A stretch of 64,000 nucleotides of DNA, from contig OZ076410.1 of NCBI GenBank assembly GCA_964187785.1, positions 17,732,001 through 17,796,000 on the forward strand, written 5' to 3'. The notes under the pieces were generated by a model. The model searched no databases and was not told the DNA's origin. It saw nothing but the letters and a program-made list of their open reading frames with translations. This stretch comes from Amphiscolops sp. MND2022. Its lineage: Eukaryota. This document shows, one piece after another, positions 1,201-39,298 of the stretch. Every line of letters starts with the position of its first letter. Position 1 is the stretch's first letter. The translations under genes were made by a program, and so were the position numbers.

Positions 1201-2103
1201 CAGAACAAATTAAAAGCTTATTAATGACTACCAGTGCCATCTGGTGTTTCGAAATATGTTCCTTCAACATTTGCCAATTGTGGTGCCTGTGAATTCAATT
1301 CATTTGAATCCTTTTGACTTTCGGCATTTACAGACATTCCAAAGATATGCAACTGGGAAATTCAACCACTTAAGTTATAAATGCGTCGATAAGTTTCTAA
1401 ATAGGCAATGGTGTGTAGACACACCACCGTTGCTAGGTCAGATTCGTATCGGATTTTTACCCGTACAATGTTTGGGAAGTTATACAGCGGATATCTAGGA
1501 TATCTGTCGATATAACCGATGTGGGGTTATATTGCACTAAGGGCGAGGAAAAACTCCCTCGAGATAGAAACAAGGGTATATAATATACTAAGTGGACCAA
1601 AAGATTGACACAGAAAGTGAAAGATTATCAGAAGTGATGATACGATAATGAAAAGTGAAAAATTTTGTGCATTCCGTTTTTTTGGTTCACCTAGTATTTG
1701 TCTAGACAAAGAGTCATATGCTCTCATGAAGTCTAGTGTTGCTTCATTTGATGATTAGTTTTTTACATTAACTTCTGTCGGTGATGTTACTCATCTCGAA
1801 AAGTTATAAACAAAAACAAGAAAAGCCAAGTATAAAGCGAAGTTCAAACGCATATCATGTTTACAATCAACGTATCACGAGCTCTTGAATGTTGCATTAC
1901 ATAATCTGAACCAAATTTAACAAATATGGTCATACTGACCACTCAGGTATCTATTTGTTTAGGAACGACCTAAATGGTCAACCTTAAACTTTGAAGACCA
2001 TTATTCTTATCCTAACCCATGTCCAATCTACGATATCTAGTCAAAACATCTGAATAATTATCATCGAGTTATCACTTGATTTCTTTATTAATCTCTCAGC
2101 ACG

Positions 2104-16330: not shown

Positions 16331-19300
16331 TTAGATGTCGATGTCCCTTTGGTTTGTGCTGTCTAGTGAAAAATAGCTTTTTTTGAAAAATGTTTTGATC
16401 TACAGGAAACACGACAATGAGCATGAATGTTTGTGGTCCGACGGAGCAGTTCTTTTTGGTTAACACTGTAGAGCCTGTGACTTGCCGTTGAAAGCGAGCA
16501 CTTTGAAGACCACTCAAATGGAAAACGTTGCAACGAGAAAAAGCAAAAAGACATAGGAAACGGCTAAAAACTTTGTGTAAAATCTCGATTGCCACCAGTT
16601 TCGCTCCAAAAAAAGAACACTTGGAATGTCTCAAAGATTGGGTGTTCGTATATGGCTACGGGCGAACATACCATAAGAAAAAATATCAATACCAAGTTTT
16701 GTTTTCTCATGCAGAAATTCTCTGAAAAAAGTGGTCCTGTGGTTGCAAAAACCGATGGATTTTGCCCTAAAAACAAAAATGTGTGCGTGACCGAAATTGG
16801 CGCCGTCTGTTTTGACTACCACATTACGAGACACATGCCGAAAAAGTGAATTTCAGTCACGCAGCGTACCGTTTAAAACGTAAAATGGCCATCCATCGTA
16901 AGTCAGTCAAGACGGTCTATGCCTGGACGGTGCAGCTGTGTCAACGCGCGTAATGTAAAATAGAGTAAACTAGCGCGTAGTTAGTAAAAATTAGAAGTTA
17001 GTCCAAACATACACTTTTTCGTAATTAAATCAAACTTTGAATAACTTCCACTTACTGCAAGTAATGCGATCTGGAATCTGCAAATAGTTGAATGTGGTGA
17101 AAGTTTGACTAACTTACACCATATGTATATTCCTTTAATATTCAGTGTTCATTCTAATTTCAATTCACACCAACACATCGTAAATCAGTCGAGTTACACA
17201 ATGATTTAATAAAAAAATAGTAATTATTACCAAGCAATACATGGTACGTATGAACCGCATTGCGCACGTGTATTCTATCCATACATTTTACGTGTAAACA
17301 ATTATATAAATATACATATGATAGACCTTGGAGCTACTAATTAGTATCACTACCTTGTAGTATTCAGAGAAAAGCAGCCCTCATGAATAGTTTTTCCTCT
17401 ATAAAATGTCTAGACTTCGGAAGTTTCAGCAATCCATACAGCTGCTTCAATGATTGTTCCTTTTCCCTCAACCCCCCTTTATGTCGACATAAATGGGTTT
17501 GTACTTTTTTGTTAACCCGCCCTCCTCCTGCGCGACGGTTTGACTTGAGGGTTAGATGGAAATAGAGACCTGGCAAGAGTAAACCAAAAAACGGGGTTGG
17601 GCCATGTGATCTATTTCCCCTTCCCTCCCAAAAAGTTGGGATGGAAATAGAGCAGAAGGTTCAAATGCCATTATGTTGACATCGTTTGGGTTGAAATTTT
17701 GGCCCAATAAAATAATTGATGTCGACATAATCATATCCATTACATAGACTGTAAGTTAAAAGTTTCTTTCTAAATTTTAATTTCTTTTATGCTGATCAAT
17801 AACATCAAAAAAATTATAGTACTTTTTCCACCTGAAGTTTCCAAACAGTTGTAGAGACATCCTTTTAGAATACACATTCTTTCAAGTTTCTCTTATTTGT
17901 GCAAAAGTTTTATTCAACATTACGATACATATGCCGAAAAAGTGAACTTTATCATCCAGTGTAAAGTGTATTATAGGTAAAACGAGAGCGAACCGTATTC
18001 TAGTCAAATAGTGCATAGTGTTCATTGCGGATTGTGATGCACGGTGTAAGAAGAACTTTCGCATGTTTAACATACAGCGTGATTGTGTAAAGTAGTCATT
18101 CACTGTATTATCATCACTACGCGTAACGCCAAATCACACAGTGTAACGAGCAAAACACGTAACGCGTATCTGAAATAACAACGCGTTTTTATTGCCTGGT
18201 AATAGAACTAGCAAGATCTTTCTAGTTCGCTGCAGCATATGTATCGTAATGAAGAACAAAATGTGGTTCCCTGTTGGGGGGATTCCCAACAAGGGGGAGT
18301 AAAAAATGACATTGTACACGGGGTTTTTTGGTGCATTACATCCTGTTGTCTTTTTCAAAGTAAAATGGCTAGTTTAAATAGACAAAAATTTCCAAACTGT
18401 AAAATAATTTACAAATATTAGCCAAACTAATGATTGTTAGTCAATATATAAAAACTTGAAAGATTCGAATAACGTATTTTATGTTCACAAATTTCATATA
18501 TGTTTTCAAAGCAACAGCGTAGTGGCTATGTTGGCGGAGTTGATAGGTCGTGTGGGTATTCGAAGAAAGATGAGTTTACTAGTACCACCGGATCGATCCT
18601 CGCCAACATCACACCGGCTAGGTGACTCTATGCAGACAACCTTGATGAAGATTTCCTTCAAATGCCTTCTGCAAAAGACATCGTTGTTATTGCGTGGAAG
18701 ATCACGTGTGTTCCACTTTCCAATGACAGGAAGATCCCACATGGAAGTGTCACTGCGTTACTGAAGATGAAGATGAAGATTTCCTCCTTATCGATTCAGC
18801 AAATAGGAAGATCCCACATGGAAGGATCACTGCGTCACCGAAGCTGAGGCTTTCTCCATATCGATTCGGCAACAAAAGACATCTGTCGTGTTCCGCTTTC
18901 CAATGGAAGGAGATCCCGAATCGAAGGATCACTGCGCCACTGCATCCCTTTTTCATGAGAAACAACAATGAGTGACTTTTTGGAAGGGTCAAAAATCCGG
19001 GAGGGGGGTTGTTTGCAGAACAGATCTAAACTATTTTTCTCCACCAAATTTTCCACGTAAAAAATTGCTGAAGCTTTATTGCTGAAGTTGTTCAAAAAAG
19101 TATTCTTTTGTTACAGAGTCTGAAATATTTCACTGGGAAGAGGCCCCCGAGGCCGTGCCGGCGGAATTAACAAAAAGAACCCCATGGATTGAGTAGAGAA
19201 CTGTTGAGTTATAGTCGCTGACGTGATGCATGATTTTTAAACTTTTCCGTTTTTTGATTCCTGTCGTGAGCATCGACAAAAACTGTCCCAAAAAAGTACG

Positions 19301-20919
19301 AATTTGAAAACCAAAAATGAATTCAAAACATCCCCGACCAACATGACCCCTCTCCCATTAATATGAACCCCGCCCGCAAAGAAATGTTTGTGGTAATAAC
19401 AACCCCCCACCATTACAATTTTAGGAATGAATTTTGGAGAAAAAGTTCATCAACGATAAATAAGTTAACGGCAAAATAGGGTGGATTCCCAAAGAGAATA
19501 AAAGCAAAAAACAAAAAACTAAAATTAATTTCGAAAAACATGAAAAAAATGTTTACGAGAAAGTTGTAGAAGTCCAAAGTGTTCACAAATTAAACGACTC
19601 ACTGGCCAAAAAGAATGCAAATCACAGATAAAACTTCGTGAAGTCGATTTTTCAACCGAGTATTTGGTTTTTTATTTGTTAAATGTGACTAATTTCGTTT
19701 CATGTTATATGCTCTTGTGTTATTCAGAGTTTAGGACGCTATTCAAAGTTTGGAACGTACATCAAAATAAGTTTGCAGTCAAATTAGAAAAATCCATTAG
19801 TTCAAAAGTAACAGCTTATTGATAATTGTAAACTGAAGATTTTCATAAGTTAAGGAATTTCTCTCTGAAGCTGATCGAGCTAGTTCATTCGTTTGTTTAC
19901 CATTCATCAAATTGGAGATGTTGTTGCAGCTATTCAATGTTTCAAATAGGATGCGAAAATTTCCTGCCTTATAAGCAAACAAAAGTTTCAACTTAGAGCT
20001 CTCATTTCCTTCTAAGGTAAAAAGTATTCCCTTCCTGTTAGATATTTACTTTCTTTGGTCACCGCAGTGACTCATCGCCGATAAACAAGCCCGTCTACTA
20101 CCTTATTTGGTCAGTAAGTGCCTGTTTTACAGTACTTCAAGTTTGATCACGGTAAGATTCAAATTAAATTGGCGGTAATCAGAACTTCTTGAATGAACCA
20201 ATATCTTTACTGAGCTTTGGGTGGAATCGGAATTAACTTTCAGTTTTCATAGTAATCATTGGCAAATCAAATGAAGAATTTTGGAAAATGACAATAATTT
20301 CATTGATTTATCGATAATTATGAACGCCAGCACGACTACGAAAAAATAAAGATTGACAGTTCCATCGTGATACTTTCTTACCACTGTTACGTTACGCCTC
20401 TGAAAACAGAACATCCTGGTTCTCATTCATTGGTCCGAGAGACAAAGTTCAGCTTCCAAAATGATCAATACTTGAAATTAACCAAAGCTGTTGAACGATT
20501 AAACATTCTCCCTTCACAGAAGTTTTTCATTAAAGGGTTAGGTAAGCTAATGACAGTTTTTGTTTCCTTCCGAAAGTATACTCTGCAGTGTAAACCTACA
20601 AAAGGCATCATGATGAGCTAAAAATTGTCCTTGATTTTTCTATGTTAGTCACCATCTGAAAATTTAGTCACTTCACTAAAAGTTTCAAACAAAGACATGG
20701 CTTCTAGTTAACTCCCCTTCAAAGCGATTATTGCTTTCGATATAGAATTGGAATTCCTCGCAAAGGAACTGGAAATAAAGTAAAACCACCCTGTGCGTTT
20801 TCCAAAATGCAATTCAAAAAGCGGTCAGGAAGGTAGCCCTTCAGGTACGGTAAATCTGAGTCAAACACTTTTTAAAGACCAAGTTTGATCTCGTTAACCC
20901 GAATAAAATGGCGAATTCC

Positions 20920-21230
20920 CAAATAGCATAACAGCAAATAATATAGAAGTGAAATTAGTTTCATTTGACATAAAAAAAAATGAGTTTAACTAAACATAAA
21001 AATGGAATTGTTTACCAGAGAGTTTCAGTGGTCAAAAGCATTCACAGTTGAAAAGATTCGTTGGAACAAGTATGAGAATTGCAAATAAATTTTCGTGAGT
21101 TCGATTCTTTAACCGGCTATTCGGTTTCATTTCTATGTAATATGAAGCCAATTTCATTTTTATGTTAAATGGAACTATTTTTGTGTTTGTTATTTGCTCT
21201 CTTTTGCTCTCTCTTATGCTATTTAGTTAT
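20920..21230. mobile_element. MITE family B (inverted ends AATAGCATAA..AAATTAGTTTCA; internal TCAAAAGCATTCACA..TTAACCGG)
   Basis: A second copy lies at ~25760-26040 and a partial end at ~42085-42150. Confidence 0.55.
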
Positions 21231-21685
21231 CGTAAACTATCGGTACGTAAATCGTTATTTGGTACGTAATCAATAAAACAGGTCCTTCATGTGAGCTTAA
21301 GTGTTTTCTTTATTCTCGGAGCGCTCAAGACAGGGACCAAAATTCCAAAAATAGCTTGAGTCAAACAGTTTTTAAGTTTTGGTCCCTGTAGTGAGCTCAA
21401 TCGCTTCAAACAAATTCTAAACTATTGTCTGCAAGATGATTTTGGTCCGTGGTGTAAGTGCATTCCAGTAAAATGTTTCAATGACTATCTTCTTCAACGA
21501 CTTTTGACGCAGAAAAACGCTATTTTGGAACTTCTATCATAGTTTATTTTCATAAATGTTAAGGAAATAAAAGATTAGGAGCAATGTTCTTCTACATGTT
21601 CTCCATTGTTTTGAAAATCACATTGGATACAAGTGTCGCGTGAACGTAAATGTTTTTGCTGAAATTCAGAGTTGATGTTTTTTCT

Positions 21686-22075
21686 TCAGAGACTTTTGAC
21701 TTTGAACTTCAGTGACGTTACGACAGCTGTTCCATTCGCGACTTTGTCCCATTCGTCGCCCAATACGTTGTCCAATGCCGCTGTCGAAAATGGGCTGTCT
21801 TCTTTTATGGAGAATGTCGCTGGAGCATTTGTGATACCAAAGTCATGAATCATAGCAGTGATGCAAGGGGAACAATCTTGCTCGATATCTTTGACTCTGC
21901 TGCTTTCAATTAGAGAATTCATCAGCAAGTTGTTCAGGTTAGAATAAACCCAAGATACTACAGCATGGTCGCCGTTTAGCGGCGCGCCATGTGGGTTTTC
22001 AATTGCCCCAAGACTTTCCCCGGTGACAATCGAAAGGTACTGTTGCATTAATAACGGGTCGTCATTTTTCGCCAC
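21686..22075 (-). CDS. Intronless 129-aa ORF of unknown function within the motif-bearing block
   Basis: Open frame with protein-like composition (DDPLLMQQYLSIVTGESLGAIENPHGAP...); no family recognised. Confidence 0.35.
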   Translation of the reverse strand: MAKNDDPLLMQQYLSIVTGESLGAIENPHGAPLNGDHAVVSWVYSNLNNLLMNSLIESSRVKDIEQDCSPCITAMIHDFGITNAPATFSIKEDSPFSTAALDNVLGDEWDKVANGTAVVTSLKFKVKSL

Positions 22076-22625
22076 TTCTACAAAACAATTTTTCTGTACC
22101 GAATGAATTTGTCTTGTACCATCAGGGTTACCAAATGAATTATTGTTGTGAAAATAAATGACAACGTTTTAAAAATAACCTATTGACCCTATTTTGGTTG
22201 GTGATAAAGGCCATTCAGTGAATGATAATAGATGTGTTTGCCAAAGGTGAGAATCTACTAGTAGTCGTGTCAACAGAATTCATATCTCTCACGATTCGTA
22301 AGTTAGAAAAAGTCAAATCAACTAGAACTGTCAGTGCAATTTCTCATGCGGCTGCCGACAACTACCAACGTTAAGCTTGCAATAACATCTCATATCCACA
22401 AAACAACTACTATACGGGTATTTTTTTGTCTAGAGAAACATTGTCCGGCAGTTGCGACGTTGATATAACTTAAATTTTTGCAAGCACCTATTTAGGTTTT
22501 TACTTTGATTACTGTAATGAAAATGGGTAAATTTAACAAACGACCTTCAGAGTCTAGCAAAAAAACAGTTGTACTTCTGACGAAAAAAGTATTGAAGTAG
22601 TATGTTCGGTGAGCCAGCTTTCAAA

Positions 22626-22916
22626 TTAAGGTACATCAATTTTAGTCTTCTTCATAGGCCTCACTTGGACCGTGGCCTCTTTGTCGCATTCTTTTTGGTT
22701 GAATCGGCTGTTCTGGTCGCAAGAAACTTGTTGAACATGTTTTTTGTCTGATTCATCCGAATCGGATGAGTCCTCGTGCTCCTCGAACATGATTTGTTTT
22801 AAAAAATGAAGTTCCCTTTCGACACCGTCTTTAGCATGCGCAAGTGTATAATGAACTTTGTCGTTCCTAACGCGGTTTTCTTTCGTGTATCCCAGAACAT
22901 CAAGGGTCAGGGACAA
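22626..22916 (-). pseudogene. ORF fragment of unknown function with an acidic tract (EEHEDSSDSDESD)
   Basis: ORF-track entry; upstream frames are disrupted. Confidence 0.3.
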
Positions 22917-25540
22917 CTCAACGCTGCGGCTGTAGATTGGAATTGGCGTTTCGTTTTTCCAGATGGACCATTTATCTTAGAAGTCATGCACTTTTGGGGT
23001 GCTTTAGTGACTCCCGCTGCATGCTTTGAACTGTAATCCAACCACAGGAAACAAAAAAGTAAACAAAACTCATGTAGACGTCTACGTAGAATGTATAGTG
23101 TGAAAAAAAATCAAAAAATTAGCACGAATCTGCAACTGTTAGTCACGGTGGAAATCTCGAATTTGCGAAGTGGGAATTTTATGAAAGACCCAACTCAGAC
23201 CTTAAGTAACGAAATGAGGGGAAAAAAAGTTTAATACCTCATGAGTTTGATGAATTTCGGTGACGTAAGTTGCTCACCAAAGTCCACATTCTTCATCAAA
23301 ACATTGCAAGAGTTTTCCGGTTTTCAAAAGTTTCGAGAAAGTCAGCATTGTCTGTTTGGCACTTGATTAAAGAATCGGTACTAGTAGTGGATTTAAGAGA
23401 AGATTCAGTGTGTTTGCAGTGAGACTCGGAGAATAATTGTATGTTACTTAGAGTACTTAAAGTTTGAATGTCGACTATCAAACCACTAAACAAAAATCGG
23501 TTTTGTTCCAGGCGAAGTTGACCGGGCAGTTTTTTGATCTATTAGGTTGAAAATTTGATTTTTGGATAATCAGAAGAACTGCATAATTCGAAATAGAATC
23601 ACTATAATCACCGGTTTGTGTTAAGTGACCGGGTTGTGTATAGCAATGGATGGTGCCTCCCACGATGATGATCATCATTACAAGCCACACTCACGCTGGC
23701 ATCATTCATTCAATATTCATTCTGGCATCTACTTCCAATCATCGAGTAATGACGATCAATATTCAATGATTGGGTAATGATGCCAGAAAGAATATTGGTT
23801 GAATTTGTCAGTGTGTATCGTCACGGTAATGAGGATGATTAATCATTTAGCAATATTTGAGTCTCTTTAATTGAATTTAAAAGTAAACTCTAGTGGTGAG
23901 AAATAATTTGAATAATCTTTCGACACTTGGTATAATCGAAAAGACAATAAGTTTTATATTCATCATTTGAAATGAATCCTTCGTCACGTTCAGACCTTCA
24001 TTTAATTGAAATTTCCCAAACTGTATTGTTGCAACATTAACCATATCAAACACCGTAAGACTTCGATTCAGCTAGAGTTTACTGATCTACTGAATTTGAA
24101 AATCAAAGTGTACTTTTCCAAAATGCTGAATTCTTCTTTTTCTCTAACAATATTTTCCCAAAATTCTGTTAACATTGCTCTCGAACATATTGTTGACCGC
24201 CAATTAAATGATGATGGAATTTTCCATGAAGAAGTTTTCCATGAACTCGCGCCTGATCCTGCTCTGACATGTCAGACCTCTCATCCTCTCACTGAGGCTG
24301 ATATATATGACTTCGTTCCGTCGAACTTATCAATGCCAGGAACAACTGACGTTCACCCGGGTATAACAATTTTAAGTAGTTTAAATGTTTTCACGGAAAT
24401 CTAAAACTGTCCGAAGTTTTCGGCAATATTTTCTGCTACTTTATGGCTGTTAATTCTGAATCTAAGTAGAGTAAGGAGGTCGAAAATTGTGAAAGATTGA
24501 AAATAAACGTAATTTTAGCTCACGCAAAACAATGCTTACGTGAAATGTTTTATAGTCTTTGAGATTTGTCATAAAACATTGCTAAAAACAGTTTACCAGC
24601 TGTTTTCCGCGTGGATTGAGTGTTCTATTGAGAGTTCCAGTTACGTAGAGAACTTTGATCCTGACGTAAAACAACCAGACAACGTAAAATAGTATTTAGT
24701 TCAGACGCCTAAAGTATTAACACTCAATGTCAGTAGTTCAAATTTTTGACTGTTTTACGGTGTCAGATAGTTTTCCGACAGGAACAAAGTGCTCTACATA
24801 ACTGGGCAGCGTAACTTTTATGCTCACAATTGCAAACTTCACATCTCAATAACATGACAAAATCCAGGACAACAAAACACTGTTAAAAAAGTTTCTCACA
24901 ATATTGTAAACCTGGACAAAATTTCATCATTTTGCGTTTTTCTCTCAAATTTCACAAAGTTGAGTTGAAGTTTCTGAACAATTTATGGTCATATTTGCCT
25001 CCAAATCTCCTGATCCTGCCAACATAACTCGGTTGAAAAATTTTTTTGATATCAAAGTCATCAAAGTTTTAAAGACGTTCCAAATACATGTGTTGCAGTG
25101 TTCAAAAAATAGTTCAAAAGTACTTTAATCTGCTTTCAGACCAATTTTCTGTTTGTACATAACTGAAATTCTGGTTAGTTTTACTGGAATAAGTTCATGT
25201 CTTGTAATGGAGCTCATTCCAGGGACCAAAATTTTGAAATCACCCGAAGGACTTCGAAATTGTTCTGCAATGAATGGATGTTTCCTAGCTAATTTAGGGA
25301 AACCAATGAGCAAGCGATTCAGTGTAGGATAAAAATTAAAATTGTTTGGATGACTGAATGAACAATGAGCAAACGAATTAGTGTAGGATGAAAAGTAGAT
25401 TGTTTGGATGACAGAAGGAAGTCACTTTTAAAAAAGTCCTTGGATATCTCTAATTTTCCTCATTTAAAAAACAGATCTATTCCGGAGAATATAATAGTTT
25501 TTGAAATTCAAATCCAATTCCTGCTTCATAACGCAAAAAC

Positions 25541-25720
25541 GGACCTTTTCTGTTAATCCCCCACAGTAAACGCGGAATTTTCAATTCCCCGCCATTATTA
25601 GTGATGAGTTCAGTTGCAGTTAGAATTAAGAGATACTGCAATTTGAAACGCTGTTACTAATAATTCAATGATAATTTCAATTGACCGCTCACCAGGGGTA
25701 GGGATTTACAGAGGAGATCC
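25541..25720. mobile_element. Free-standing 180-bp MITE whose TIRs resemble those of the intron-forming element
   Basis: Left GGACCTTTTCTGTTAATCCC versus reverse complement of right end GGATCTCCTCTGTAAATCCC (16/20); both resemble the intron TIR GGATCTTTTCTGTAACCCC. No clean TSD. Confidence 0.55.
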
Positions 25721-27059
25721 CAGAAACAAAAGAATTCCAACGGTAAATTTCCAACTAACATAAGGGCAAATAACAAATACAAAATTAGTTTCAAATAACA
25801 CAAAGAATATGAAAAGAATTAATCCGGAAATATAAAATTAATTAAAATCGAAATGTTTCAGTATTCAAAAGCATTCACAATTCAAAAGATTCACCACAAA
25901 AGTGTGGAAAATACAGATAACATTTTCTTAGTTCGATTGTTTAACCGGGTGTTCGGTTTTATTCTTATGTTGTTTGAAACTAATTTCATTTTTGTTATTT
26001 GAAACTAATTATGTTTTTTTGTTGATTGCTCTAATGTTATTTGGTACAGTGGTGATTTTGAAAAGCAACAATGGCAAATCTCGAAACGAATATTTCTAAA
26101 ACAGCAGCAATTTTTGAAAACAGACAAAAGTGAAAGATTCACAAATTTTTATCTAGTTTACAAATATGTTTATTTTGGTCAATTTTTGGTCGGTATTTCA
26201 GAGAAATTTCATAAGCAATCGACTTCCCTGGTATAACCGAAGCCCTCGATATGTTTTGATTTAGAAATCGTTGTGAATTGGTAGACAACATACGTTGTAG
26301 AACAGACCTAAAAATACATGTATGGTTTTGAACTTATCAACTTGAAACAAGCTCATACAGATACAGTTTAGATAATTTTCAAGAAAAGGTTACATTGTCA
26401 GATTCGAAATAATTGAGAGAATTTGTCTGTCGAAAAAAATTGTAAGTGGATCAAAAATTCAAAACAACCGAAAACTGGTGTTTTGGAAATCGCTCTCAAC
26501 CAATGATATGTTTGTTTAATTACTTTCTTTCCGCGTGATATGTTGCTTCATCTAGAATCACTACTGTAATAGTTTCCAGTTGTCACCAACCACGCACTGT
26601 TTTCTTTGCTTCTCCTTTGGCCTCCGTTTGCAAACTTCCAGCCTGGAGAGGAAGCTCAGCTGAGCTTTTCCACAAGTGTTGTTCAACGAACCTAAAGAAA
26701 TCTGAAATTTTGAACATACATGTACTGTTGAATGCTCTAATAATATCAAAACGAGCCACATCACAGTAAAGTGGATTTCAGACACGCAGTGTAATCTGTT
26801 TACTCCATAGAATGGCCATTCATTGTATGTCAGTCAAAATGGTCTACGAAGTATGAATACAAAGAATTGTATCAGTATGAATAAAATGAGTATTCCTTTC
26901 TGTATAAAATTATCAATCGATGTTTTCGATTTTCATTCATTGTTATAAATGCGACACATGTTATTAATTCAAAACACATTGATGTCATTCAGCCAACCCT
27001 ATAAGCAATCATGTTCCGTTTTCCAGGAAAAATCTCAGTAAAAAAAGATAATTGTATTT

Positions 27060-27956
27060 TAAGGTAATCAAACTCCAGTACGGAATCCACCAGGCGATCA
27101 TGGGTAGACTGAGATTTCCAGTGCCCCGCTTCTAACAGGCCCAGGATTTGTTAACCCCCATTCAACTCCACATCCAAACCATGCGTCTTCCTCGAGGAAC
27201 TTCGTCGCTCCATTGAGCTCAATCGATGCCGCAATTCGGACTATCCGTCTCCCCTCGAATCTCTGCCAGCGGCCGAGGATGCAAGTGATTGTGGCGAACT
27301 GTGGCAATGGGCAGAAAGACAATCTTATGTCGAGCATCTGCTGCAAGCTGACCGCGTTCCTTAAAAAGAAGAAGCCATGCTTGTGTTCCAGTCTCTCGTG
27401 ATCATCTGGTGTGTCATCAATTGTTACCCTGCCCGACTGCTCAAGAAGTTCATGTGTATGACTTTGTGAACTTCTTCAGTAAAGGAAAAGGTCAACATGT
27501 TTGTGCTGTGACTGATGGAAGTAAGTACAAATTTAGGGGTTTTGAAGTTCAGCGAATTCGAGAAAAAGTGATTACTTTTCATATCAAACATGACCCCCAT
27601 TTTGGATAGATGCATTTGACGTTCTGAAAGGAAGTTTTCTCACAGCACTCCTAGATTCGACTTTGCAAGAAGTAACCCAGTCGATATTTTACAACCCAAA
27701 TAGAAAAAAAATGAATGCTACCAGAGTGTGTGAGAACTTTCAAAACAAAATGAACGCAGCCCACAGGAAGCCAAAAAGAGGACTCGTCTACGAGCCAAGT
27801 CCAGAACATCTCGAAACTGATGCAACCCCAAGTCCATCTGTGGAAGTGGCAAGTTCACCAACCAACACCCCCCGATTCCGATTCAGCAGCTCAAAGACGG
27901 TTGACGCATGTAGAAATGACTGCCAAGTGCCGACTTCAAAAAAGCAACTGTTCTAA
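27060..27956 (+). pseudogene. Decayed ORF of ~300 codons, unknown family
   Basis: Protein-like segments in shifting frames (LEELRRSIELNRC.., FVNFFSKGKGQHVCAVTDG.., QEVTQSIFYNPNRKK..). Confidence 0.4.
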
Positions 27957-28130
27957 TCCAGTGATAGTTTTGCCAGTATCAATTCAGTAAGTTGACTCTT
28001 TTGTTATCCATCGTGCGCACTGGAAAAAGTTTTTGGTTTAAATTGTGGTCCCTGTCGTGAGCACATCTGAAACTTTCTAATGATTCCATTTGGTTTTGGT
28101 TACGACTTCCATTAAAATTTTCGTTAGAGT

Positions 28131-28750
28131 ATGGAAATTGACGTTTTTTTGAAAGAAACACCTACAAAACAATAGTTCTTGATTTATGGTCTTTTTCGGG
28201 TGAAAAAAACTTCCATCCTCAAAATAATCCCAAAGACACTATCCAACTCAACCGTCCAGACCAACTCAACCGTCCAGAGAACGCTGACCGAAGTTCGTCC
28301 GCAATCGTGGCTGGTCTGATCATGCAAGAAATTTAGACAACACGATGTTAGCGTGGAAACCTTCAATTACCGAGGTTAGACAAAACACTAGACGTGCAGC
28401 ACCTGAAGCAATTAAGACGGATCTCGGAAGAGGCGAGAGCACTTTTGTTTGGAAGCTGACATCAACTTTTTGAACACTTCGAAAATCAGTTAGGTACAAT
28501 TGCAACCAAGAGGGGCACTTCCTCCAAGTTCGTTCCGAAATATTGTTCGAAAATGGTTCTGTCGGTCGAGGAGTGGTCACAACAGCCTCTATCAAAAACT
28601 TGGAAGTAGTTGGTCACTACCACACAGACCTTGTCATGGACCACACACCCTTTTTGCTTCGATTACAATGATCCAGCTTGCAGGGTGGAGTTTACCTTCC
28701 GACCCCTTTGGTGCCACATAATCCACACCGGCCCCAGGAACATCTACTAG
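28131..28750 (+). pseudogene. Decayed ORF, unknown family
   Basis: ATG at 28131 follows TTTTCGTTAG; protein-like frame LKQLRRISEEARALLFG..LFEHFENQLGTIA..CRVEFTFRPLWCHIIH contains isolated stops. Confidence 0.3.
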
Positions 28751-28839
28751 TGAATCTGAAAAAGGGACCTCTAGTAGTAACTACCAAGTGACCGAGACGC
28801 CTGAAAGTGCTACCCTCTTTTGAACTTGTGATCTTTGGA

Positions 28840-29021
28840 CAGTACAGTGATTAAAAAAGTTGTCCGCCTTTGCACTGAGCACCACTTAAAAAGGCAAGTT
28901 TGCTCCCTAATAATCCCTAATTCGCTCAAAATTAGCCCCTGGAAAATTTCATTAAAATTTTTGAGCAGTTACAAAATAACGGGCCTGAAATAGCCGGGGA
29001 CTTTTTTGAATCAGTGTACTG
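28840..29021. mobile_element. Tc1/mariner-type MITE (CAGT..ACTG ends, TA on the right)
   Basis: Left CAGTACAGTGATTAAAAAAGT versus right ACTTTTTTGAATCAGTGTACTG|TA; a related right end lies near 45090-45121. Confidence 0.7.
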
Positions 29022-29620
29022 TATATACAATTTTTGATTTTTCAAAGAAACGTTATAATTTGAAACATTCAACTGATTTTTGACATATACTCAAGATTTA
29101 TTGTTGACATATATTTGAAACTTTCAACAATGACCTTTTGTTTCCTAAGATACTATTCTTTCTTCCTTATTCGATCTCCTTCCGAAGATACTAGTGGAGT
29201 CATTCATATTATCAAAATCATTGATTGTTGCAGTATAAGAAATAACTTGAGTGATAAAATTGTTCCTATGACATTATTGTTTGAAAAATTAAGTTTTGAA
29301 ATAAATTCCGGGTCACGTGTTTTTTCTGGGGATAACGCTTTTTTCGCATAGCGAGACAACACGGTAAAATGGATTTCTGTCACGCAACTGTTTACTCCCG
29401 GACGTTCCAAGCGGACTATAAAACGGACAGTTTGAGACTTTTTGCAGTATTATTTTCTTTGAAGTCACCACACTTTTCTTTGAAGCATATCAAGGCAGTT
29501 TGCAATTTGTTTTCTCCCACTTCTGGTGGCGGTCATAACTTGTTTTCATATTCATTACAGCAAGTATTATCGTTTTTTTGATTTGTGTTTTAATATTTGC
29601 CTAAACTTTTTGTATTTCAG

Positions 29621-29785
29621 ACCCAAATGATACAAAAACCATTCATCACTTATGCTGGCATCAACTACGTGAAACTTATTCAACTGGACGTCTTGTCCCG
29701 AGTGTGTTCCTGCGACGAGGCATTGGCTCTCTGCCTCCCAATGATCACAGGAAGGTTACGGAGTTCCTCAAGAAGCATTTGAAGG
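29621..29785 (+). CDS. Isolated candidate exon (symmetrical, phase 1-1), unknown gene
   Basis: Acceptor TTTGTATTTCAG, 165 nt open (PNDTKTIHHLCWHQLRETYSTGRLVPSVFLRRGIG..FLKKHLK), weak donor GTTCAT; no partner exons identified. Confidence 0.25.
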
Positions 29786-29909
29786 GTTCATTTTGTTCTT
29801 TCGTTTTCCAATCAAAAACGTAGCTAGAGTAGATTTTGGTAAAATTGAAGGTTATTTTGATTGAATTGGAAATTATGATAAATGGAATGCACTTAGCCAT
29901 ATTTTTGTA

Positions 29910-30820
29910 GGTGATCGTTTATGACGCGTTTTGGTTCATGATTGTTGCAGAACTGAATATTAACTTCCCGAATGTGTACAAACCTCATGGAATCAAAGAA
30001 ATGTCTTCTTTGTTGGGCTAAGACGTGTTCGATTTATTGATAATATCTGCACCCCCAACCATATTTTCCTGGACGACTGAAAGAGTTGGCTATATACGTC
30101 AGTTTTTCACTTCGATGCCCATTCCAGACCGAACATCTTTTTCAACAATTGACACAGTTTTTCCACGACAGTCATCCCCGAAAGGATCCTCCTCAACTTT
30201 GGCAAGAGACGTTTCGCTGCAGAATGTTTGAAGATCTTCTATGAAGACCCTATCGGAATCAGAAGATGCACTGGATGTTTTATTGAAATTCTCAAGCAGT
30301 TTTCAATAGTCAAACATGAAAAGAAAAAAAACACCTCAGTTCATAATTTTTTCCATCTTTTTCTGCCAAACTCGTTTTGCCTTGACAGGGAAGACATTCA
30401 AATCGAGATTCAATTCCTACTTACACTGAATAATCCCCAGGATCTCTTAGTCAAAGTAAGTCGACTTATACAATGCCCTTTCATCAGAGCAACGATTCTC
30501 CCTCGAGATGTGAACTCAAAACAATCACATGTAACTTGAACGACAATTTCAGATCAATACACACTCCCGAAAGAACACCCACTGGGTTCCGTGTAAATCT
30601 TGTGGCTTTTGTTAAATTCGTTGCCTACAATTTGTCTATCCAGACCAGTTCAGTAGGCTTGAGAGTAGACATTTATAGAGACGCAATGTCTCGCGGCAAA
30701 GAAGACGTCGTACGAATGGCATTCCGATTTTTGCAAAGTGGCATCGATACTGAGCAATCCTCTACCCATGTCTTCACGTTTGCTGTGTTTGATTCGAGTC
30801 ATTCAAAGTTTACTTTATAA
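29910..30820 (+). pseudogene. Decayed long ORF, unknown family
   Basis: A protein-like frame runs through ..IPERILLNFGKRRFAAECLKIFYEDPIGIRRCTGCFIEILKQ.. with sparse stops. Confidence 0.35.
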
Positions 30821-30880
30821 GATCGAAACTTGATTTCTTTTGCGAGCCACAACAAAATGTTCATTGAAAATCATGCGAAT

Positions 30881-31165
30881 CTTGATCCCTGTCGTGGGCT
30901 ACACTTGAAAGTTTGATGGGAACGCAAATCTAACTTTGGTCCCTGTCGTGAGCTACACTTCATAGGTCAGTGGGAACGCAAAACTAAATTTTGTCCCTGT
31001 CTTAGGCTACTCTTGAAAGTTTAGTGGGAACGCAAACATAACTTTGGTCCCTTCCCTGTCGTGAGCTACACTTGATAGTTTAGCGGGAATGCAAAACTAA
31101 ACTTTGTCTCTGTCGTGAGCTACACTGAATTGTTTAGTGGGAACACAAAACAAATTTTGGTCCAT
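30881..31165 (+). repeat. Tandem array of five ~54-bp units, each carrying the TTTGGTCCCTGTCGTGAGC motif
   Basis: Units start near 30881, 30934, 30988, 31042 and 31102; consensus TTTGGTCCCTGTCGTGAGCTACACTTGAAAGTTTAGTGGGAACGCAAAACTAA. Confidence 0.9.
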
Positions 31166-31266
31166 TTTCAGCAGCACTGGATTGTTTTGTCACAAAACAA
31201 AAGTTTTTCCCTGTTCGGAAGTGAGAAACGTGATGTTGGAATAATAATTTCTGGAATGTTTTCCAG

Positions 31267-33000
31267 GGTAAAGATGTGCGAATCCACATGGAATACAACC
31301 TCGCCATGTCAGAAGTGCTTGGACGTCCTGGATGTCTATACAAGGAAACAAAGGCTTTACATGACGAAGGTGTTATACTGAGTTGTTCCGGTGACTCACC
31401 ATTCCAACTGCGTTTGTTGAAAGGTGTTAGCAGTGATGTTTCTTGTCTGTCAAAGATGTGACTTTATATCAGTGATCCTGCAGATATTCCGACTCTACCA
31501 CTGAAACAGACAAGAAAGGACATTGCTGATTATAAGAGAGAAATTGAAGTAAGGGTTGTGATTCCTCCGTCAGCTGTCGACTATGCTAATGGTCGAAGAA
31601 AAGAATTGATCATTGTTATCAGCGAACGAATCCCATAAGATTCTCCCATTGTTCTCTAATCCACTTTCAATACCTGTCCTTATCTGCTGCATATGATTGT
31701 TCGTTCAGTCGAAAGTGACATGAAGTTACATGTGGACCTGATGTTACAGTTGAAATACCATGCAGCAATATCTTGACTCGAATGTAACATAACGGAACGG
31801 AAGGTGAAACCGCCGAGATTCAAGTTTGAGATCGTGGAACACTCTGCAAGGCTGTATCTCAGTTTCAAAGACGCAGAAGTAATAATATCTGAATGGACCA
31901 GAATCAGTGACCATGGCCGATCAAACTGCACAGTTTTTGAAGATGTCTATTCATTCGAAAAACCTCATGTCTGCAAAGCTGAACAAACAAGCTCAACAAC
32001 GTCTAATCATGTGTTGATTTCATTAGTTGTTGGGATGGAGAAATCTTTCACAAAAGGAATGAGCATTTCTGTTCGGCAACTGGCTGACCTCCAATTCCGA
32101 TCTCTGTACCAGTTACTCGATTTGCTTCGACAGAGAGAATTGAGGCTCGGAGACATTCCAAAGCGCAAAGATCTTCACGAGATGTTTTACCACTCAACTT
32201 TGTCTTTTCTGTGATTGAGCGTAGATGCCATACAAACTGAAATTGGATTTGTTACTCAGACTTTTTGAGAAGGGTGAGCTTCTATCTCCATTTTTCACAT
32301 GACAGAAGGTACTGAAAAAAGACACCATACTGCAGCTAAAGACAACAATACGAAGACAATGCGTGATGGTGGTGATGATGCTTGGAACATGTCATCCAGT
32401 TATCTCGATTTTCGGTTTTCCTTCTACCGTGCATTTGATTTGTGTTCATCGAAGTTTGCGACACATGAACCTTACCTGAAGTCGTATGGAAAAACAAAGA
32501 TGAATCTTGATATTTGCGGTGAACACATTCCAGAACCCGAACTTGACTATTTTAGGACTGAGGACATGTTTAGAGGTATGACTTTGTTAATCGTTGATCA
32601 TATGGTCACATGAAGAAAACTCAAGCAAGTCTTGAAAAGAAGATAACCGAAAATAGAGGAAATGTTGTTTCCAATGTACTTATCATCAACAGGAGCAGGC
32701 TGAAATTTTTGAGTTTATCATTATTGCATTTACCAAATTGTGATTGTCTCGACGCATTCATCAATTGTTAACCAGGTACAGAATTAGCTGCAACGAAGGT
32801 ACTTTCCAATATAATTCGCGGCAACTGGATTTACGTGATCTGTGAATTTGTAATGGCCTGTATACATAAGAAATCCTTGATTGATCCCAAAGATTATGTT
32901 TTCGAAGTAGATGAATCTGCGACAGCCAAACTCAAAACGATGAAGTACATGTCTTTGGCACCGCAAGTACGTCGTCTATCAAACCCCTAAAACTTGGTTC
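31267..33000 (+). pseudogene. Decayed large ORF (at least 450 codons), unknown family
   Basis: ORF-track entries 31276, 31804 and 32299 are all in the same frame; only 8 in-frame stops between 31276 and 32613; continues after a frameshift. Confidence 0.55.
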
Positions 33001-33112
33001 AATAAACTACCATGCTGCAATGCGGAAATATACTAAAATATATTCACTAAAAAGGGCTGCCTTGAAGAAGAAAGACGAAGTGTAATGCGGACTCAGACAT
33101 TATTCTTTTTGT

Positions 33113-33330
33113 CAGACAAGGTCCATCCGACCGCTTCATAATCTTTTCAGTTCATATCCAAAACTTATTCATTCTATCAGAAAAGGTCCCTTCGGTCGCT
33201 TCATTATAATTTCAGTACAAAACCTAACTTATTGATATTGTCCGACAAGGTCCCTTCGACCGCTTCGTTCTTTCCGTGCAGATCTAAAACTTACCTATTT
33301 TATCAGACAAGGTCCTTTTGATCCCTTCAT
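33113..33330 (+). repeat. Tandem repeat, about 4 x 63-66 bp, core CAGACAAGGTCCCTTCGACCGCTTC
   Basis: The core recurs near 33113, 33177, 33242 and 33304. Confidence 0.75.
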
Positions 33331-34079
33331 TTTCATTGTTTTTTGTTTTATCATGATTATGAAGTCATTGTAATGCAGATCTAGAATATATTTTTCTTCA
33401 AGTTCACATTGATCGCCTATTTATTGCCGTTCCAGTCTATACTTTCATACTCACATCTTTTCACTTTTTTTAAAATTCTAACAGTCGAAATTTTGATACC
33501 CGTCGTGAGCGCAATTTTTGAAAGCATCAAGATGACAATCATTTTATTGTTTTTTTTAATACAATTGTGGATTGTGTTTAAAAATGTGTGACTTCCTGGT
33601 ATCTTTTTCAGTTGATATCAAATATCAACGCTACCGACTAGTAGTAGTACCTGAATGGCGTCTCATCAGAAGACATCGAAGAAGATCCCCAGTGCCGAAA
33701 TTCGATAACATGAAAAGATTTCAAAACAAAACTTTTGTGACCAAGCTGTGACGTTTTGCTAATTTCTCTTATGAAAAGATCGAATCTGACATGGAATTGG
33801 TTTCAGGCACTTGTTACGTTGTGGACAACCTGTTCAACATCCAGCGCCACCGCCTTGTCCGTCCCCGAATGCCACGAGAGCAATTCGAGCTGATTTAGAG
33901 AACATGCCAGCTCTGCCGCCAAATATTTTCTGCTAAGAAGCTGAAGTGCCTTTCCTAACTTCATTTTTTCCTTAATCTAATCTATTGAATGATTTTATTG
34001 ACCATTTTATACTCAAAACACAGCGCGCAGTGACTGGAATCCATTTTATCGGAATCCATTAATAGAGTTTTCGCGAGTT

Positions 34080-34516
34080 TCGCGTTGTCCAATTTGCCCA
34101 GAATTCAGCAACGAGAGACGCGTTTATAATCTTTGTTCGCACAAAGACTTCGTAAACGATGTTAGTGTCACTGTGTTCACGGAGGAGGCCTCACAAAAGG
34201 CATATCTTCTTTGCCCCAAGCTTTGCTTCAGACAGAGGAACTGGCTTATGGACGAGGACGGTGCGAGTGTCCCGAAAGAAGCAATTTTGTGAAGTGCCTA
34301 AATTTTTTGTGCCGAAGACCTGATGTTGACGAACCCAACCGTGATGTTTTCATCAGCTATGTGGAAGTCATCACGTATGTTCACCAGCGACCGTCACAGT
34401 CTGTCAGAGGCTTGCAAAAGGTGCCAGAGAGAAAAACCCTCGTTCAAGTTTTGGTAAGTTTGTTTTTCAGTTCCAGACTGGCTGATTCAATGATCAACCA
34501 TGCTCATGACTGGTAA
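34080..34516 (+). pseudogene. Cys-rich decayed ORF, unknown family
   Basis: CPICPEFSNERRVYNLCSHKDFVND..LLCPKLCFRQRNW followed by the ORF-track entry 34211-34516 in another frame. Confidence 0.25.
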
Positions 34517-35859
34517 ACAAAGTCAATGTTTTCGTTTCAGAATTCAGGCCATCCACTGATCGCTACATTGCTTCGATCATTAGCCACCCTGTCGCTGTAT
34601 ACAGTTATGCTACTTGATCATAATGTTACCTTTCTTGTCTCCGAGTTTTTTATTGTGGTCAGTAAACTGTACACGATATACAGAAAATGTATGGCTTTTT
34701 CGTTTAACAAAATATGCTTATACCACTACACGACAAGAATACGATCTGAAAAAATTTTAAATTCTTCGGCGAAATCCGAATCGATTCGAAATTGTCACCA
34801 AGTATGAAAAAACTGCTTTTGACTACGAAATGACGCTTCTCAAATGCTCACGGTATTTTTTGTTGAAATAATTGGCATAATCTTACAGCATATGATTACG
34901 CATTTATCGAATAAAAGTTTTAATTGTGAAACGACTTGTTGTTGTTGGCCAATATTAATGTGTACTATTTACTTCCTTTTTATAATACATTTGTACCGTC
35001 TTGAGCTTTTGTAATTTTGTAACATTCTGGATTGTATCGTTTTGTGTTACGAAGAATAAAAAAACATCTCTCGTCGGTAAGGTCGGGTCGTTGCTTCCAA
35101 ATTAAAATTACATGTAGATATTAGAAACATCAATGGCCGCCGGAAATAATTGGGTCACCACAGGGGAGTTTTAAATAACTTTGCCTTTGTGCTTCCTTGC
35201 TTTGTATGTTTTCCCTTTCAGTAAAACCACGGTCTGAAGCAAAAGTACCTTTAAGAAGCAGAATAGCAGTGTTGAGGGCTGTTTTATTATAGGTAGTACT
35301 GTTTAATATCTGATATGAATCTTTCATAGAAACAACTGTAATACATAGTGAGATATGTTTGAGGATGAAACAGTAGTGTTTTTGTTAGTCAATTGATCAA
35401 TATACTAATTTAAACTAGATTAAATTCTAACAAACTTTCATTTTTGACGTCTCACAATTTTCAATTGATGCCTTGCAAATTGAGCCTAGAATCGCTCGAG
35501 GAAGTTTCTTTAATCACATTACTGTAGCTCTCGTCCAGTGAAATAAACGTGTGGGCCTCGATTAGCCAACGATATGTTTGTTCTTTCCGGGTGTTTTGTT
35601 GTTTTTCAAAAGTTGGCGAAATCATTTGATGTAGAATCGAGTTATTCTATTACCTTTTGACAAGGGACATAAGTACAGGTAGCTGATGGTCTCCGTCGGT
35701 ATCAATTTTGAAACATGGTTTACAGTGGACCTAATGAGAGCATCTTTGGTGTAATAAACCTCAAAAAAAGTTCAAGTTGGAGTCAACGTTAGAAACATGT
35801 ATTTGACTTTTTAAATGAAATGTGAATATTAAAAAACTGAATGTTTTGAGATTTGTTTC

Positions 35860-36550
35860 GAGATGAATGTTTTGAGATTTCTAATAAAATCTTCTTCTTC
35901 CACTTATGGAGGAGAATTGAGGCACATTTGTTGGATTCCCCCACTCATCGATCGTTTTAGGCTGATCAGGCAGCCTTCCTTCCTGGAGAGAAAGCTCTTT
36001 ACCCAAAGGGCACGGTCTGCGGTTTCCCTAAAATCACAGTGGTCATTCTTTTGGAACGACATCTTGAATTAGTTTATTCCATTCGATGTTTCTTTTCAAG
36101 TTTTCTCTTTTCAAAAATGTGTAACCAAGTGTGTATCAGTGATTCCGGCAATACACAACATAAAAAAACACGCATCAAAGTTTTATCAGTGAACTTCATC
36201 AGTTGAAAAGAAAAAGTGAAAACAGCTTCTAAAAGAGTTTATAAAAGCAAGGTTCTGTTAAACATACCTCTCAAGGACTTAAATCGAGGCTTGACGGCAT
36301 TGGTGGCACAATACGTGTTTGCCGTGGAGAAACCAAATAGATGAAAAGATCTTCGCTGCATGGACCGCACAGAGCATTTTGAGGTTATGTCAATGTGAAA
36401 GGTTGATGCGAAAGTTATTTTTCTCAAGAAAGATGTGTTGGTGATCGGTGTGGTGATTTTTAGGTGAAATGGTTGAAACAACAAGTCCGAGACATACATA
36501 GAACACATGGTATGAGAAACGAATTCGGCTTTTTTGTCAATATCTTCCAT
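35860..36550 (-). pseudogene. Decayed ORF, unknown family (MEDIDKKAEFVSH...)
   Basis: 103-aa ORF that continues past its stop with protein-like sequence. Confidence 0.25.
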
Positions 36551-37129
36551 CTCAATGAACGAACAACTCGCTTTGTTCCTTGACTTCTCGCAACTTAATT
36601 TATCCTTTCATTCAAGTAACCATCTAACTAGTTTCGAACGTTTTAATAAGTTGTACCCAGCTAAGTAACCGTCTCTCCAATTACTAATGGGTTTAGTGAA
36701 CCAAGTAACTAACAACACGGTAGTGAAATGAAAGAATCTTCTCAATTTTTATCCTGTTTTGGAATGAAAGGAGATGGTACCGTGACTGTCACTATAGATG
36801 ATAGTTTGAGTTTCAAAGCAACCTCTAGCAATAGTTTCTAAACGATCTTTAGTTTTGGTCCCTGTCGTGAGCAAAGCTGATGTCAACTCGGAACGATTGG
36901 TCAACTAATTGATGAACTACTTAAATCTCGTAAGGGTATTTACGCTGATCAATTTTGATACCTGTTGTGAGCATCGTCGAAAGTTATTACAAAGATCTAT
37001 ACGATTTTGAAATTTAACAATCTGATAACAAATTTTAGGGAATACCAATCATGGAACCTCGAACTAAAGTCAAACTGTGGATTTTATGCCTGATTTCCCC
37101 CTACACAAACATTGTTTCTTACCCAACAA

Positions 37130-37748
37130 CAACCACCTGCCCCATTTATGCCTCCACTCCCCCATATAAATAAATGGAGGTAAATAATCTAATGTGAGCA
37201 TCATCAACAAAAGAACTCAGAAACCTGAAATTGTTTCAAAACGAACAGAAAATCAAATGGAATTTTCCTGAATACAAACTCATATTTAATATTGAATCAT
37301 GGAACAATGAATTCAATTGTTTTGATTTCAAAAATTTATTTAATTTGTGATCATGGTTAAGAAATATTCAAAATAATAAAAGTGTTAACTTTTTATGTGG
37401 GCGGAAAATAATAATCTAAAATATCAACGTTAACTTACGTTTAACAATTGAAATTTGTAAGTTAACTCATTTATTATTCTGAATATATCGTAGCCATGAT
37501 CACAAATTAAAATAATATTTGAAATCAAAACAAATTCAGTAAATGGGCGAGGAAAATCAAGATCTGTGACGCGTTTTTTTTTACAAATTCTGCCAAAACT
37601 CCTTTATCTCCACTCCATGGAGTGAAGTGAACTTCACTTATTGCTTTCCCAGCCAGTAGATCTTGGGTACGATCCTCTCCTTGGCCATCCTTTTTTTTGC
37701 AATAAGGGTGTTGCGGAAAATATCCCGGTGCTTAGCGGGCGTCTTGTA
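37130..37748 (+). mobile_element. Family A copy with an internal ~70-bp fold-back and a Helitron-like 3' hairpin
   Basis: Inverted repeat 37320-37389 / 37460-37530; the 3' 34 bp are identical to 4688-4721. Confidence 0.55.
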
Positions 37749-39028
37749 ACATTTATGGACGTTTACTAAAGAACACTCGACGTTAAAGTGTTTACTTTGA
37801 GGCCTAAGACCAGTGACCTCATTGTTGCATATTAATTACGTTTGCAAATTAGAATAGAATTGAACCGACCAATGTTAAGGCGCCATAGCATAGAGGATGC
37901 GCGCAAGCCCGGATACCGTCAATTGTTTTATAAATTTAAATATTGAGAAATATATTTTTCAATTACAATTCAATTTGTTATCTTGATTATTTGGTATATC
38001 ATATGATAAGATTATTGAACAAAGTTTATGATCATTTGTCAGTTTGTATGTTTCTTCGATACACCAATCTTTGTTTTTGTGGACATCTAATGCATTGAAT
38101 AAGAGACTGTTTGATTTCCCTCTTTTAAAACGAGCTGTTTTCCCGAAATCTTTGAGTCAAACTCCTTTCTTCAAATTACTTTATGTACTGTTGAATTGTG
38201 AATCACTATTTCTCGTGTACTTTTGGGTCCTGCTTCGGTATGACACACAAAAAAGATACTAAACAGCACTGGTTATCGTGAGTGAAAGAATAACAAGATA
38301 AGCCATAAAATTGCCAAACTAGTTTTTAACTTGAGGCATCAATTGTTTCAGTTTTTCTGGTTCTAAGTACTTCTTTTGTTTGATTTTTTTGAAGCAAATG
38401 TTCTTCCGGTGAGTATGCAGTCTACTTTTTTGAATTCTATTTTCGTAAATATTCAAATTGAAAAGGAAATCAAAAGGAGTTTTACTGAAAACAAAATAAA
38501 ATTTATTATTACTCGTGAAATTATGAATTAAACCAATTTTTTTTTACAAAGAGACAGTGAAATATACGTATGTACGTTTGAACTGCATGTACGTATGATC
38601 AGTCACCAATTTAGTGAAATGAATGTCTAATTTCGGTCCCTGTCGTGGGCACTTTCATTAGCACTGTACTAACTATGTACCACTTATGTAAGAAGATTGA
38701 CTGATTTATTCTGTGTATGCAAAACAAACAGTGTAATTATAAATCGACCTGTGTAGTTATCAGAACAACCCGTAATTACGAGAACCACGTGTAATTATGA
38801 GATGCAGAGTGTAGGTAGTCAAATTGCGTGGAATCCAAGTTTGGTGTAAACTAGTCAATTACTGTAATTTGCGCGGGGTTAAACTGGTCAATTTACGAAG
38901 CTCGGTCAAATCGTGTAATGACTTATCAATGCGTGTAACGTGTGACAAATGTAAATCTTCCAAAAAAGTATTCCCACCCTGACTGAACAAAAATTGAACA
39001 AGCAGGATCCTGCTAGTTCGTTATCGGG

Positions 39029-39298
39029 ATGTGTCTCGTAATGCAGGTGGACTTGATTGTTGCGGTCTGTGTGACTTACCACTCGGAGCCCTTGGAACGT
39101 TACAAACGTTTTGTCGTCCGCGAGGAAAAACTATTATATGCAAGGTACTTGAAAGAGTTAGTTTCAAAGGTTTCAGATGATCAATGTAACAGACTGTTGG
39201 CGGAACTATCCTTTGCAGCAGAACACAGATCGACGATTATTACCCTGCTGGAACTTCTGCAAACGCAAAGTAAACCTGGTCTAATGGTGATGTTCTAA
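39029..39298 (+). CDS. 89-aa helical-looking ORF of unknown function
   Basis: EPLERYKRFVVREEKLLYARYLKELVSKVSDDQCNRLLAELSF; no family recognised. Confidence 0.2.
   Translation: MCLVMQVDLIVAVCVTYHSEPLERYKRFVVREEKLLYARYLKELVSKVSDDQCNRLLAELSFAAEHRSTIITLLELLQTQSKPGLMVMF

Follow-up and report, generated by a model that had tools for sequence, protein, structure and literature searches.

A family-specific motif in giant RAG-fold transposons of Amphiscolops sp. as a likely docking site for the elements' own zinc-finger JmjC protein

We analyzed a 64,000-nucleotide stretch of the Amphiscolops sp. MND2022 genome (assembly GCA_964187785.1, contig OZ076410.1, positions 17,732,001 to 17,796,000; hereafter the window), in which an initial annotation made from the letters alone had singled out a 20-bp motif placed between seemingly anonymous open reading frames (ORFs). 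It is near certain that window positions 16822–39043 are one dead copy of a cut-and-paste DNA transposon of ∼27.7 kb, which we call family D. The remains of a transposase gene, of a SET-domain gene, of a gene for a zinc-finger JmjC protein and of further cargo genes lie between its inverted ends, with copies of the motif dispersed among them (Table 1). The motif is likely to be a docking site for the element's own zinc-finger JmjC protein, in what would be a family-specific targeting system; this reading rests on comparisons of sequence among eight related families.

Three clusters of motif matches in the genome were collinear with the interval occupied by the window copy. Inverted ends starting with CATTACG were present in 11/11 elements examined, and 9/11 had a 2-bp target duplication (CA/CA in the window); target duplications in sister families were TT, TA, CG and GC. 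Seven young copies of family D were 27.3–27.9 kb long and ∼99% identical, and the terminal 20-mer of the family had 643 exact matches in the genome. The window copy is old: its transposase carries stops and frame breaks, the exons for finger 3 and the JmjC domain are missing, and the nearest relative of one test piece is 77% identical. The earlier suggestions of a viral element, a packaging signal or cassette recombination sites are not supported: the inverted ends and 2-bp target duplication are those of a DNA transposon, and no capsid, packaging ATPase or pPolB was found among the ORFs scanned against Pfam, a scan in which several cargo genes had no match. Helitron and tyrosine-recombinase elements were also considered and were set aside in view of the inverted ends and target duplications. 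In young elements, the left inverted repeat is additionally copied inside the SET-gene intron (L022, element position 10022) and a worn copy resembling the right end lies at about 7850–7912 (L021), which may point to an origin as a composite or to an alternative end.

The ORFs of the block, earlier described as anonymous, are exons, and 7 of the 23 motifs in a young copy are intronic, two of them splitting the transposase core. The 297- and 617-amino-acid ORFs are exons of one transposase gene, because a full-length homologue spans their junction and splice sites flank the gap. A model of a transposase homologue (P0015; mean predicted local distance difference test score, pLDDT, 87) aligned with RAG1 at Z 19.7 (root-mean-square deviation 3.8 over 382 residues) and with HzTransib at Z 17.7, and has a C-terminal BRCT domain. 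The D, D and E motifs are conserved in alignments, and no Pfam transposase family matches the element transposase. Transib and RAG-like elements have a 5-bp duplication and CAC termini, whereas this element has a 2-bp duplication and CAT termini. The CMCT clade (EnSpm/CACTA, Mirage, Chapaev, Transib, Plavaka, ESTA as well as Lanisha) has a definition that includes 5'-CA..TG-3' termini and a 2–5 bp duplication (PMC12730594). The element shares with this clade the CA..TG termini, a short (2-bp) target duplication and a DDE transposase of the RAG1/Transib fold, and it differs in its C-terminal BRCT domain and in having no matching Pfam transposase family. In alignments read by eye, neither the C(2)C motif nor the H(3-4)H motif of the clade was seen; we found C(4)C or none, and TPYKLK at the expected histidine position. 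Because these motifs were not seen despite the fitting termini and duplication, we left the transposase unclassified.

Young copies contain a spliced cargo gene encoding three zinc fingers and a KDM2/7-type JmjC domain. Its finger and JmjC exons were free of stops in 7/7 young copies, the JmjC H-x-D...H metal triad was intact in 8/8 families, and the best Protein Data Bank (PDB) matches of the JmjC domain were KDM2A and PHF8, tied at about 1e-9. The JmjC product is a predicted KDM2/7-like histone demethylase. Its fingers are of the C2H2 type, with the zf-C2H2 profile found in 8/10 members, PDB matches to PRDM9 and CTCF, and a model (pLDDT 84) in which two strands and a helix carry ligands in the order C-C-H-(H/C), the last ligand being Cys in fingers 1 and 2. 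Families V2, V3 and X4 also carry the finger-JmjC gene, as longer stretches of their DNA show. A search of the protein database yielded no spliced finger-JmjC protein (1 match), Atlas searches with two cargo proteins gave no usable lead, and a metagenome scan returned two weak loci. The SET gene matched Pfam SET at 3e-10 in a young copy, where its splice sites are also seen, and its best PDB matches were KMT5A. Family V1 (L089–L091) has an ORF that, by eye, resembles a Tudor/Agenet reader domain; if true, this would add a reader beside the writer and eraser cargo.

In the window, the 20-bp motif matched 11 times at 0–3 mismatches, compared with 0.01 expected by chance; 0/100 shuffles reached 11. 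These are 11 of the 14 copies first reported (the one given as 30881 actually starts at 30880), and the remaining three, all in the tandem array, are weaker, with 4–5 mismatches (30988, 5; 31047, 5; 31101, 4); the copy reported as 31042 has a 5-bp insert inside. The five array copies make up a 54-bp tandem array at 30882–31163. We found a further copy at 21440 (+), which corresponds to a young-copy site. The supposed weak match at 48757 has seven mismatches in its best alignment and is no credible copy. The confinement of the motif to a ∼20-kb block was borne out in that all copies lie within the one element. Outside it, window 39854–40608 matches the right end of an element of family V2 at 87%, and its 232-bp repeats hold degenerate motifs at 39889 and 40121 (both −) that had not been reported.

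The 18-mer core of the motif had 2078 exact matches in the 1.07-Gb genome versus 0 for a reversed control. Among the first 100 matches listed, 79 had a neighbor within 30 kb, versus 7.6 if matches were uniform, which contradicts a uniform scatter across the genome. Isolated motif loci fetched from one contig (C1) had family sequence at or beside the motif in 21/21 cases. This clustering and the isolated loci uphold the proposal of a cis-acting motif belonging to one large self-contained element; the motif is not the end of a miniature inverted-repeat transposable element (MITE).

A young family D copy has 23 motif sites, spread from end to end. None of them overlaps coding sequence, which makes up 31% of the element (25% when derived from comparison with families having other motifs), an outcome equaled by 19/3964 circular shifts. 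Two of the seven intronic sites are in the transposase gene, three in the SET gene and two in the finger-JmjC gene. Non-autonomous derivatives keep motif sites, and small derivatives retain the four sites found within ∼720 bp of the element ends. Several sites lie upstream of genes and 18/23 are on the strand of most genes, as might be expected of a host transcription-factor site or of a promoter or leader before each cargo gene. This explanation is nevertheless very improbable: eight families have eight motifs, 0/21 isolated loci were free of element sequence, and introns of the finger-JmjC gene of family S hold two motif arrays, one in sense and the other in antisense orientation, in addition to the 7/23 sites that are intronic in family D. 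Because the intronic arrays of family S occur in both orientations, the motif appears to act at the DNA level, and it is unlikely to serve generally as a shared promoter or leader.

Sites paired between the window and young copies (n = 11) agreed at 90% of positions, compared with 61% in the 60-bp flanks and 50% in pairs drawn at random, although the comparison is partly circular in that sites were chosen by match and two pairs were matched by sequence, not position. This difference speaks against the motif marking junctions of cassettes or of recombination, and against its being a neutral consequence of local duplication. Short tandem repeats and hairpins do contain some of the sites, and the families differ in gene order, as such an origin would have it; however, sites interrupt single genes, the flanks of most sites are unrelated, and the fit between fingers and motif described below disfavors it as well, so that we find it scarcely credible. 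As a separate observation, the young copy has ∼14 inverted repeats of 24–149 bp, several of them beside motif copies.

Each of eight related families has its own 17–21-bp motif and also carries a KDM2/7-type JmjC gene with three zinc fingers. The motifs were found by unbiased k-mer discovery, and the same procedure recovered the D motif. They are TTTTGYTTACTGKCATGATC in family S (34 own sites, 0 D sites), TTTTCTAAACCRTGAGC in V1, TTTTACGAACTGTCWTGAGC in U, TTTTGGTTCCAATTGTGGGT in X, TTTTGGTCCCAATCGTGAGT in V2, TTTTGGTATCCACCGTGAGT in X4 and (TTTT)GTAACGACTCCAKGAGC in N. Matrices of counts by family and motif were near-diagonal, the only notable cross-matches being D–V2 and V2–X. Family T, whose transposase is 75–80% identical to those of D, S and U, had no fingers and no such motif in 40–60 kb around three rearranged copies; the ends of these copies are undefined, and a JmjC remnant is present. 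At 10 new loci, the N motif was found at six and the V1 motif at one. Two side observations concern these families. The S motif has also expanded into a satellite that spans at least 24 kb and repeats about every 61 bp (G000:C2:2054870-2078682), possibly a high-density landing pad or sink for the family S protein. A second dispersed, hairpin-like module (GTGGAAACCAGGACA / TTGTGGAATCCAC / TTGTGGATTCTTC) occurs across V2 (L093), X (L111–L112), X4 (L107–L108) and N (L167) and is not accounted for by the fingers.

Likeness of motifs did not track likeness of transposases: D and V2 are 40% alike in protein and share 17/20 motif positions, whereas D and S are 78% alike in protein and share 14/20. 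TnpA is itself transposase-derived, and its sites in Spm lie near the element ends; the transposase here, or a TnpA-like derivative of it, might likewise bind the motif for end assembly or activation, as at the Spm subterminal repeats. The four sites close to the ends that persist in small derivatives would suit such a role, and transposases can be sequence-specific activators (10.64898/2026.08.24.746577). Yet most sites are internal or intronic, likeness of motifs does not follow that of transposases, S and D have the same terminal repeat start and different motifs, and the fit of the finger code would have to be a coincidence. We therefore consider binding by the transposase improbable.

In C2H2 fingers, small or hydrophobic residues favor T; this tendency was left out of our scoring of finger residues against motif bases. 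Scoring used only the published contact code, in which R, K or H specifies G, N or Q specifies A, and D or E specifies C (PMC12264921), with 30 registers considered per finger. Residues at helix positions −1, 3 and 6 of finger 1 are KNR in D and U and RNR in V1, V2, X4 and N, where the last triplet of the motif is GAG; they are VNR in S, where it is GAT, and RHR in X, where it is GGG. In finger 3, position 3 is D in the families with C on the bottom strand (D, U and S); the residues are R-S-R in X4, with GTG on that strand, and N3 with R6 in family N, with GAG. At one register, 23/23 coded contacts of finger 1 fit (next best register, 13), a result equaled by 90/5040 label shuffles; on the other strand, finger 3 fit at 10/11 coded contacts (next best, 6), equaled by 0/5040. 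Contrasts between sister families also obey the code, with N→H accompanying GAG→GGG (V2 vs X) and S→N accompanying GTT→GAG (V1 vs N). Predictions of the motif end were set down ahead of reading the motifs; they held for V2 and X4, and for family N at 6/7 specified bases. Judged by this residue-to-base fit, it is probable that the element's own fingers physically bind the motif.

Several points weigh against this reading. The prediction for V2 was not made entirely blind, and in family N the base preceding the last triplet, predicted to be T, is mixed G/T. The strand and register of finger 3 were picked post hoc from the 30 options and then tested on N alone, and they imply an unusual flipped finger or a dimer. 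Finger 2 has no distinctive register fit, and motif positions 1–10 are matched by nothing. The eight families are related, so that label shuffles overstate significance. At the three remaining new loci (N2, N6 and N7; 3/10), no such motif was in the top lists. The ratio of nonsynonymous to synonymous substitution against old copies, ∼0.2–0.65 for the finger and JmjC exons, indicates modest selection. Finally, a KDM2-like eraser of H3K36 methylation could dampen the element, not activate it.

We propose that the three-finger KDM2/7-type JmjC protein of the transposon would bind the motif on copies of its own family, with finger 1 reading the last triplet (GAG, GAT or GGG) on the top strand and finger 3 reading positions 13–11 on the bottom strand. 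The bound protein would bring the predicted histone demethylase to these copies, probably preventing their silencing, and these sites may also be served by the SET enzyme. A dead copy such as that in the window could only be served in trans. Each family would evolve its own C2H2 address and rewrite dozens of matching sites over the element body. If the fingers do bind, we think it fairly likely that the enzyme is active and that the outcome is anti-silencing. The observed/expected ratio of CpG in the window is 0.9, and because CpG is barely depleted, any silencing that is countered is more likely histone-based. We lean slightly toward the full chain, in which unclassified giant RAG-fold transposons in an animal would have programmable anti-silencing with their own C2H2 address per family.

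The same finger-motif fit would apply if the element's finger protein bound the motif for self-restraint or for ordinary gene regulation (autoregulation or control of cryptic starts). KDM2A and PHF8 score equally as matches to the JmjC domain, and motifs lie within introns of the finger-JmjC gene itself, as autoregulation would have it. Against this, the sites run end to end and are retained in non-autonomous derivatives, as they are in VANDAL elements (PMC5735166), and we regard self-restraint or ordinary regulation as unlikely.

The remainder of the window holds a duplicated gene for an S-adenosylmethionine (SAM)-dependent carboxyl methyltransferase (2092–3648 and 9301–10746; Pfam Methyltransf_7, 2e-24), of a family best known from plants, and remnants of a long terminal repeat (LTR)-type reverse transcriptase and a hAT-like dimerization domain (13724–16150 and 44089–44469). 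Elsewhere in the genome, one family D copy (L010, G000:C1 ∼48762500–48769700) has a 7-kb insertion at a (TAC)n run, with weak SET and integrase-SAM-like ORFs.

Table 1. Features of the family D copy in the window (window coordinates).
Feature	Position	Strand	Basis or remark
Old, internally deleted family D copy	16822-39043	+	CA/CA target duplication; ~65-84% identity to young copies in matched segments
Left terminal inverted repeat (CATTACGAGACAC...)	16822-16842	+	Element-end comparison
Nested 334-bp MITE, same kind of inverted ends	17918-18251	.	AA/AA duplication; end comparison
Motif copy, non-coding	19252-19271	+	Corresponds to site 2839 of young copies
Three motif copies	21323-21342; 21377-21396; 21440-21459	-; +; +	Motif scan; third copy with 5 mismatches
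Remnant exons of cargo gene(s) common to sister families	21578-23095	-	tblastn; no convincing Pfam or Atlas match
Motif copy, non-coding	25212-25231	-	Motif scan
Broken two-exon SET-domain gene, KMT5A/SETD8-like	27063-28820	+	Pfam, PDB, splice sites, remnants
Motif copy within SET-gene intron	28043-28062	+	Motif scan, young-copy splice sites
Broken transposase gene, DDE, RAG1/Transib fold, C-terminal BRCT	29935-33082	+	Stops and frame breaks in window copy
54-bp tandem array of five motif copies, transposase intron	30880-31163	+	Two copies in young elements
Motif copy upstream of zinc-finger-JmjC gene	33491-33510	+	Motif scan
Remnant of finger 1-2 exon, zinc-finger-JmjC gene	33807-33943	+	tblastn
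Remnants of two further cargo genes	34059-34447; 36269-36574	+; -	tblastn
Two motif copies (36853, 36953)	36853-36972	+	Stretch resembles left-end module of young copies
Subterminal motif copy, ~400 bp from right end	38631-38650	+	Motif scan
Right terminal inverted repeat	39023-39043	-	Element-end comparison

The closest parallel is VANDAL/VANC of Arabidopsis, a sequence-specific anti-silencing system in which VANC binding and DNA demethylation were demonstrated experimentally, and in which family-specific motifs in introns and other non-coding regions are multiplied by tandem repeats and co-evolve with the element protein (PMC5735166). Similar to VANDAL elements, the elements described here combine an element protein with a family-specific motif that lies in intronic, intergenic and terminal non-coding DNA, is tandemly repeated, and differs between related families. 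In contrast to VANDAL, the host is, judging by introns and gene content, probably an animal, the element has inverted ends and a transposase of the RAG1/Transib fold and is not a Mutator-type element encoding VANC, the motif is 17–21 bp long versus 8–9 bp, and the candidate binder is a C2H2-finger JmjC enzyme whose specificity would be readable from its sequence. REF6/JMJ12 is a JmjC demethylase of plant hosts that is targeted by its zinc fingers to CTCTGYTY (PMC6497721, PMC7105484). Guidance of a JmjC demethylase to a DNA motif by C2H2 fingers is likewise predicted here, but REF6 is a host gene with thousands of target genes, whereas the KDM2/7-like protein is transposon-borne and would be aimed at its own family. 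Other transposons contain chromatin enzymes, TET/JBP in fungi and SET in HarbingerS and MuDR, so that chromatin-modifying cargo within a complete transposon is common to them and to the present elements; a matching DNA-binding module and a family-specific address are not described for them in the available part of that source (PMC12730594). In Spm/TnpA-type systems, a protein from the element itself binds to repeated motifs and switches on cognate copies (10.64898/2026.08.24.746577), as is predicted here, except that the present sites span the whole element and match zinc fingers. By analogy, the best reading appears to be a VANC/VANDAL-like, family-specific chromatin targeting by a zinc-finger demethylase in a probable animal, as a member of neither VANDAL/VANC nor REF6. 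Literature searches, which covered sources other than Repbase Reports and subscription papers, listed no paper with this element or transposon-borne finger-JmjC targeting in its title or the opening of its abstract, and the sequence-specific anti-silencing systems among the results were from plants (VANC and TnpA).

The 2017 paper on VANC did not settle what regions of the protein determine its target (PMC5735166). With eight families as matched pairs of finger residues and motifs, protein-DNA co-evolution in an arms race between transposon and host becomes testable. If the proposed system is real, it would explain what the JmjC and SET cargo is for and provide natural fusions of zinc fingers and demethylases with long, distinct targets, and the host strategy of silencing transposons by zinc-finger guidance would be inverted here, with a specificity that can be predicted from sequence.

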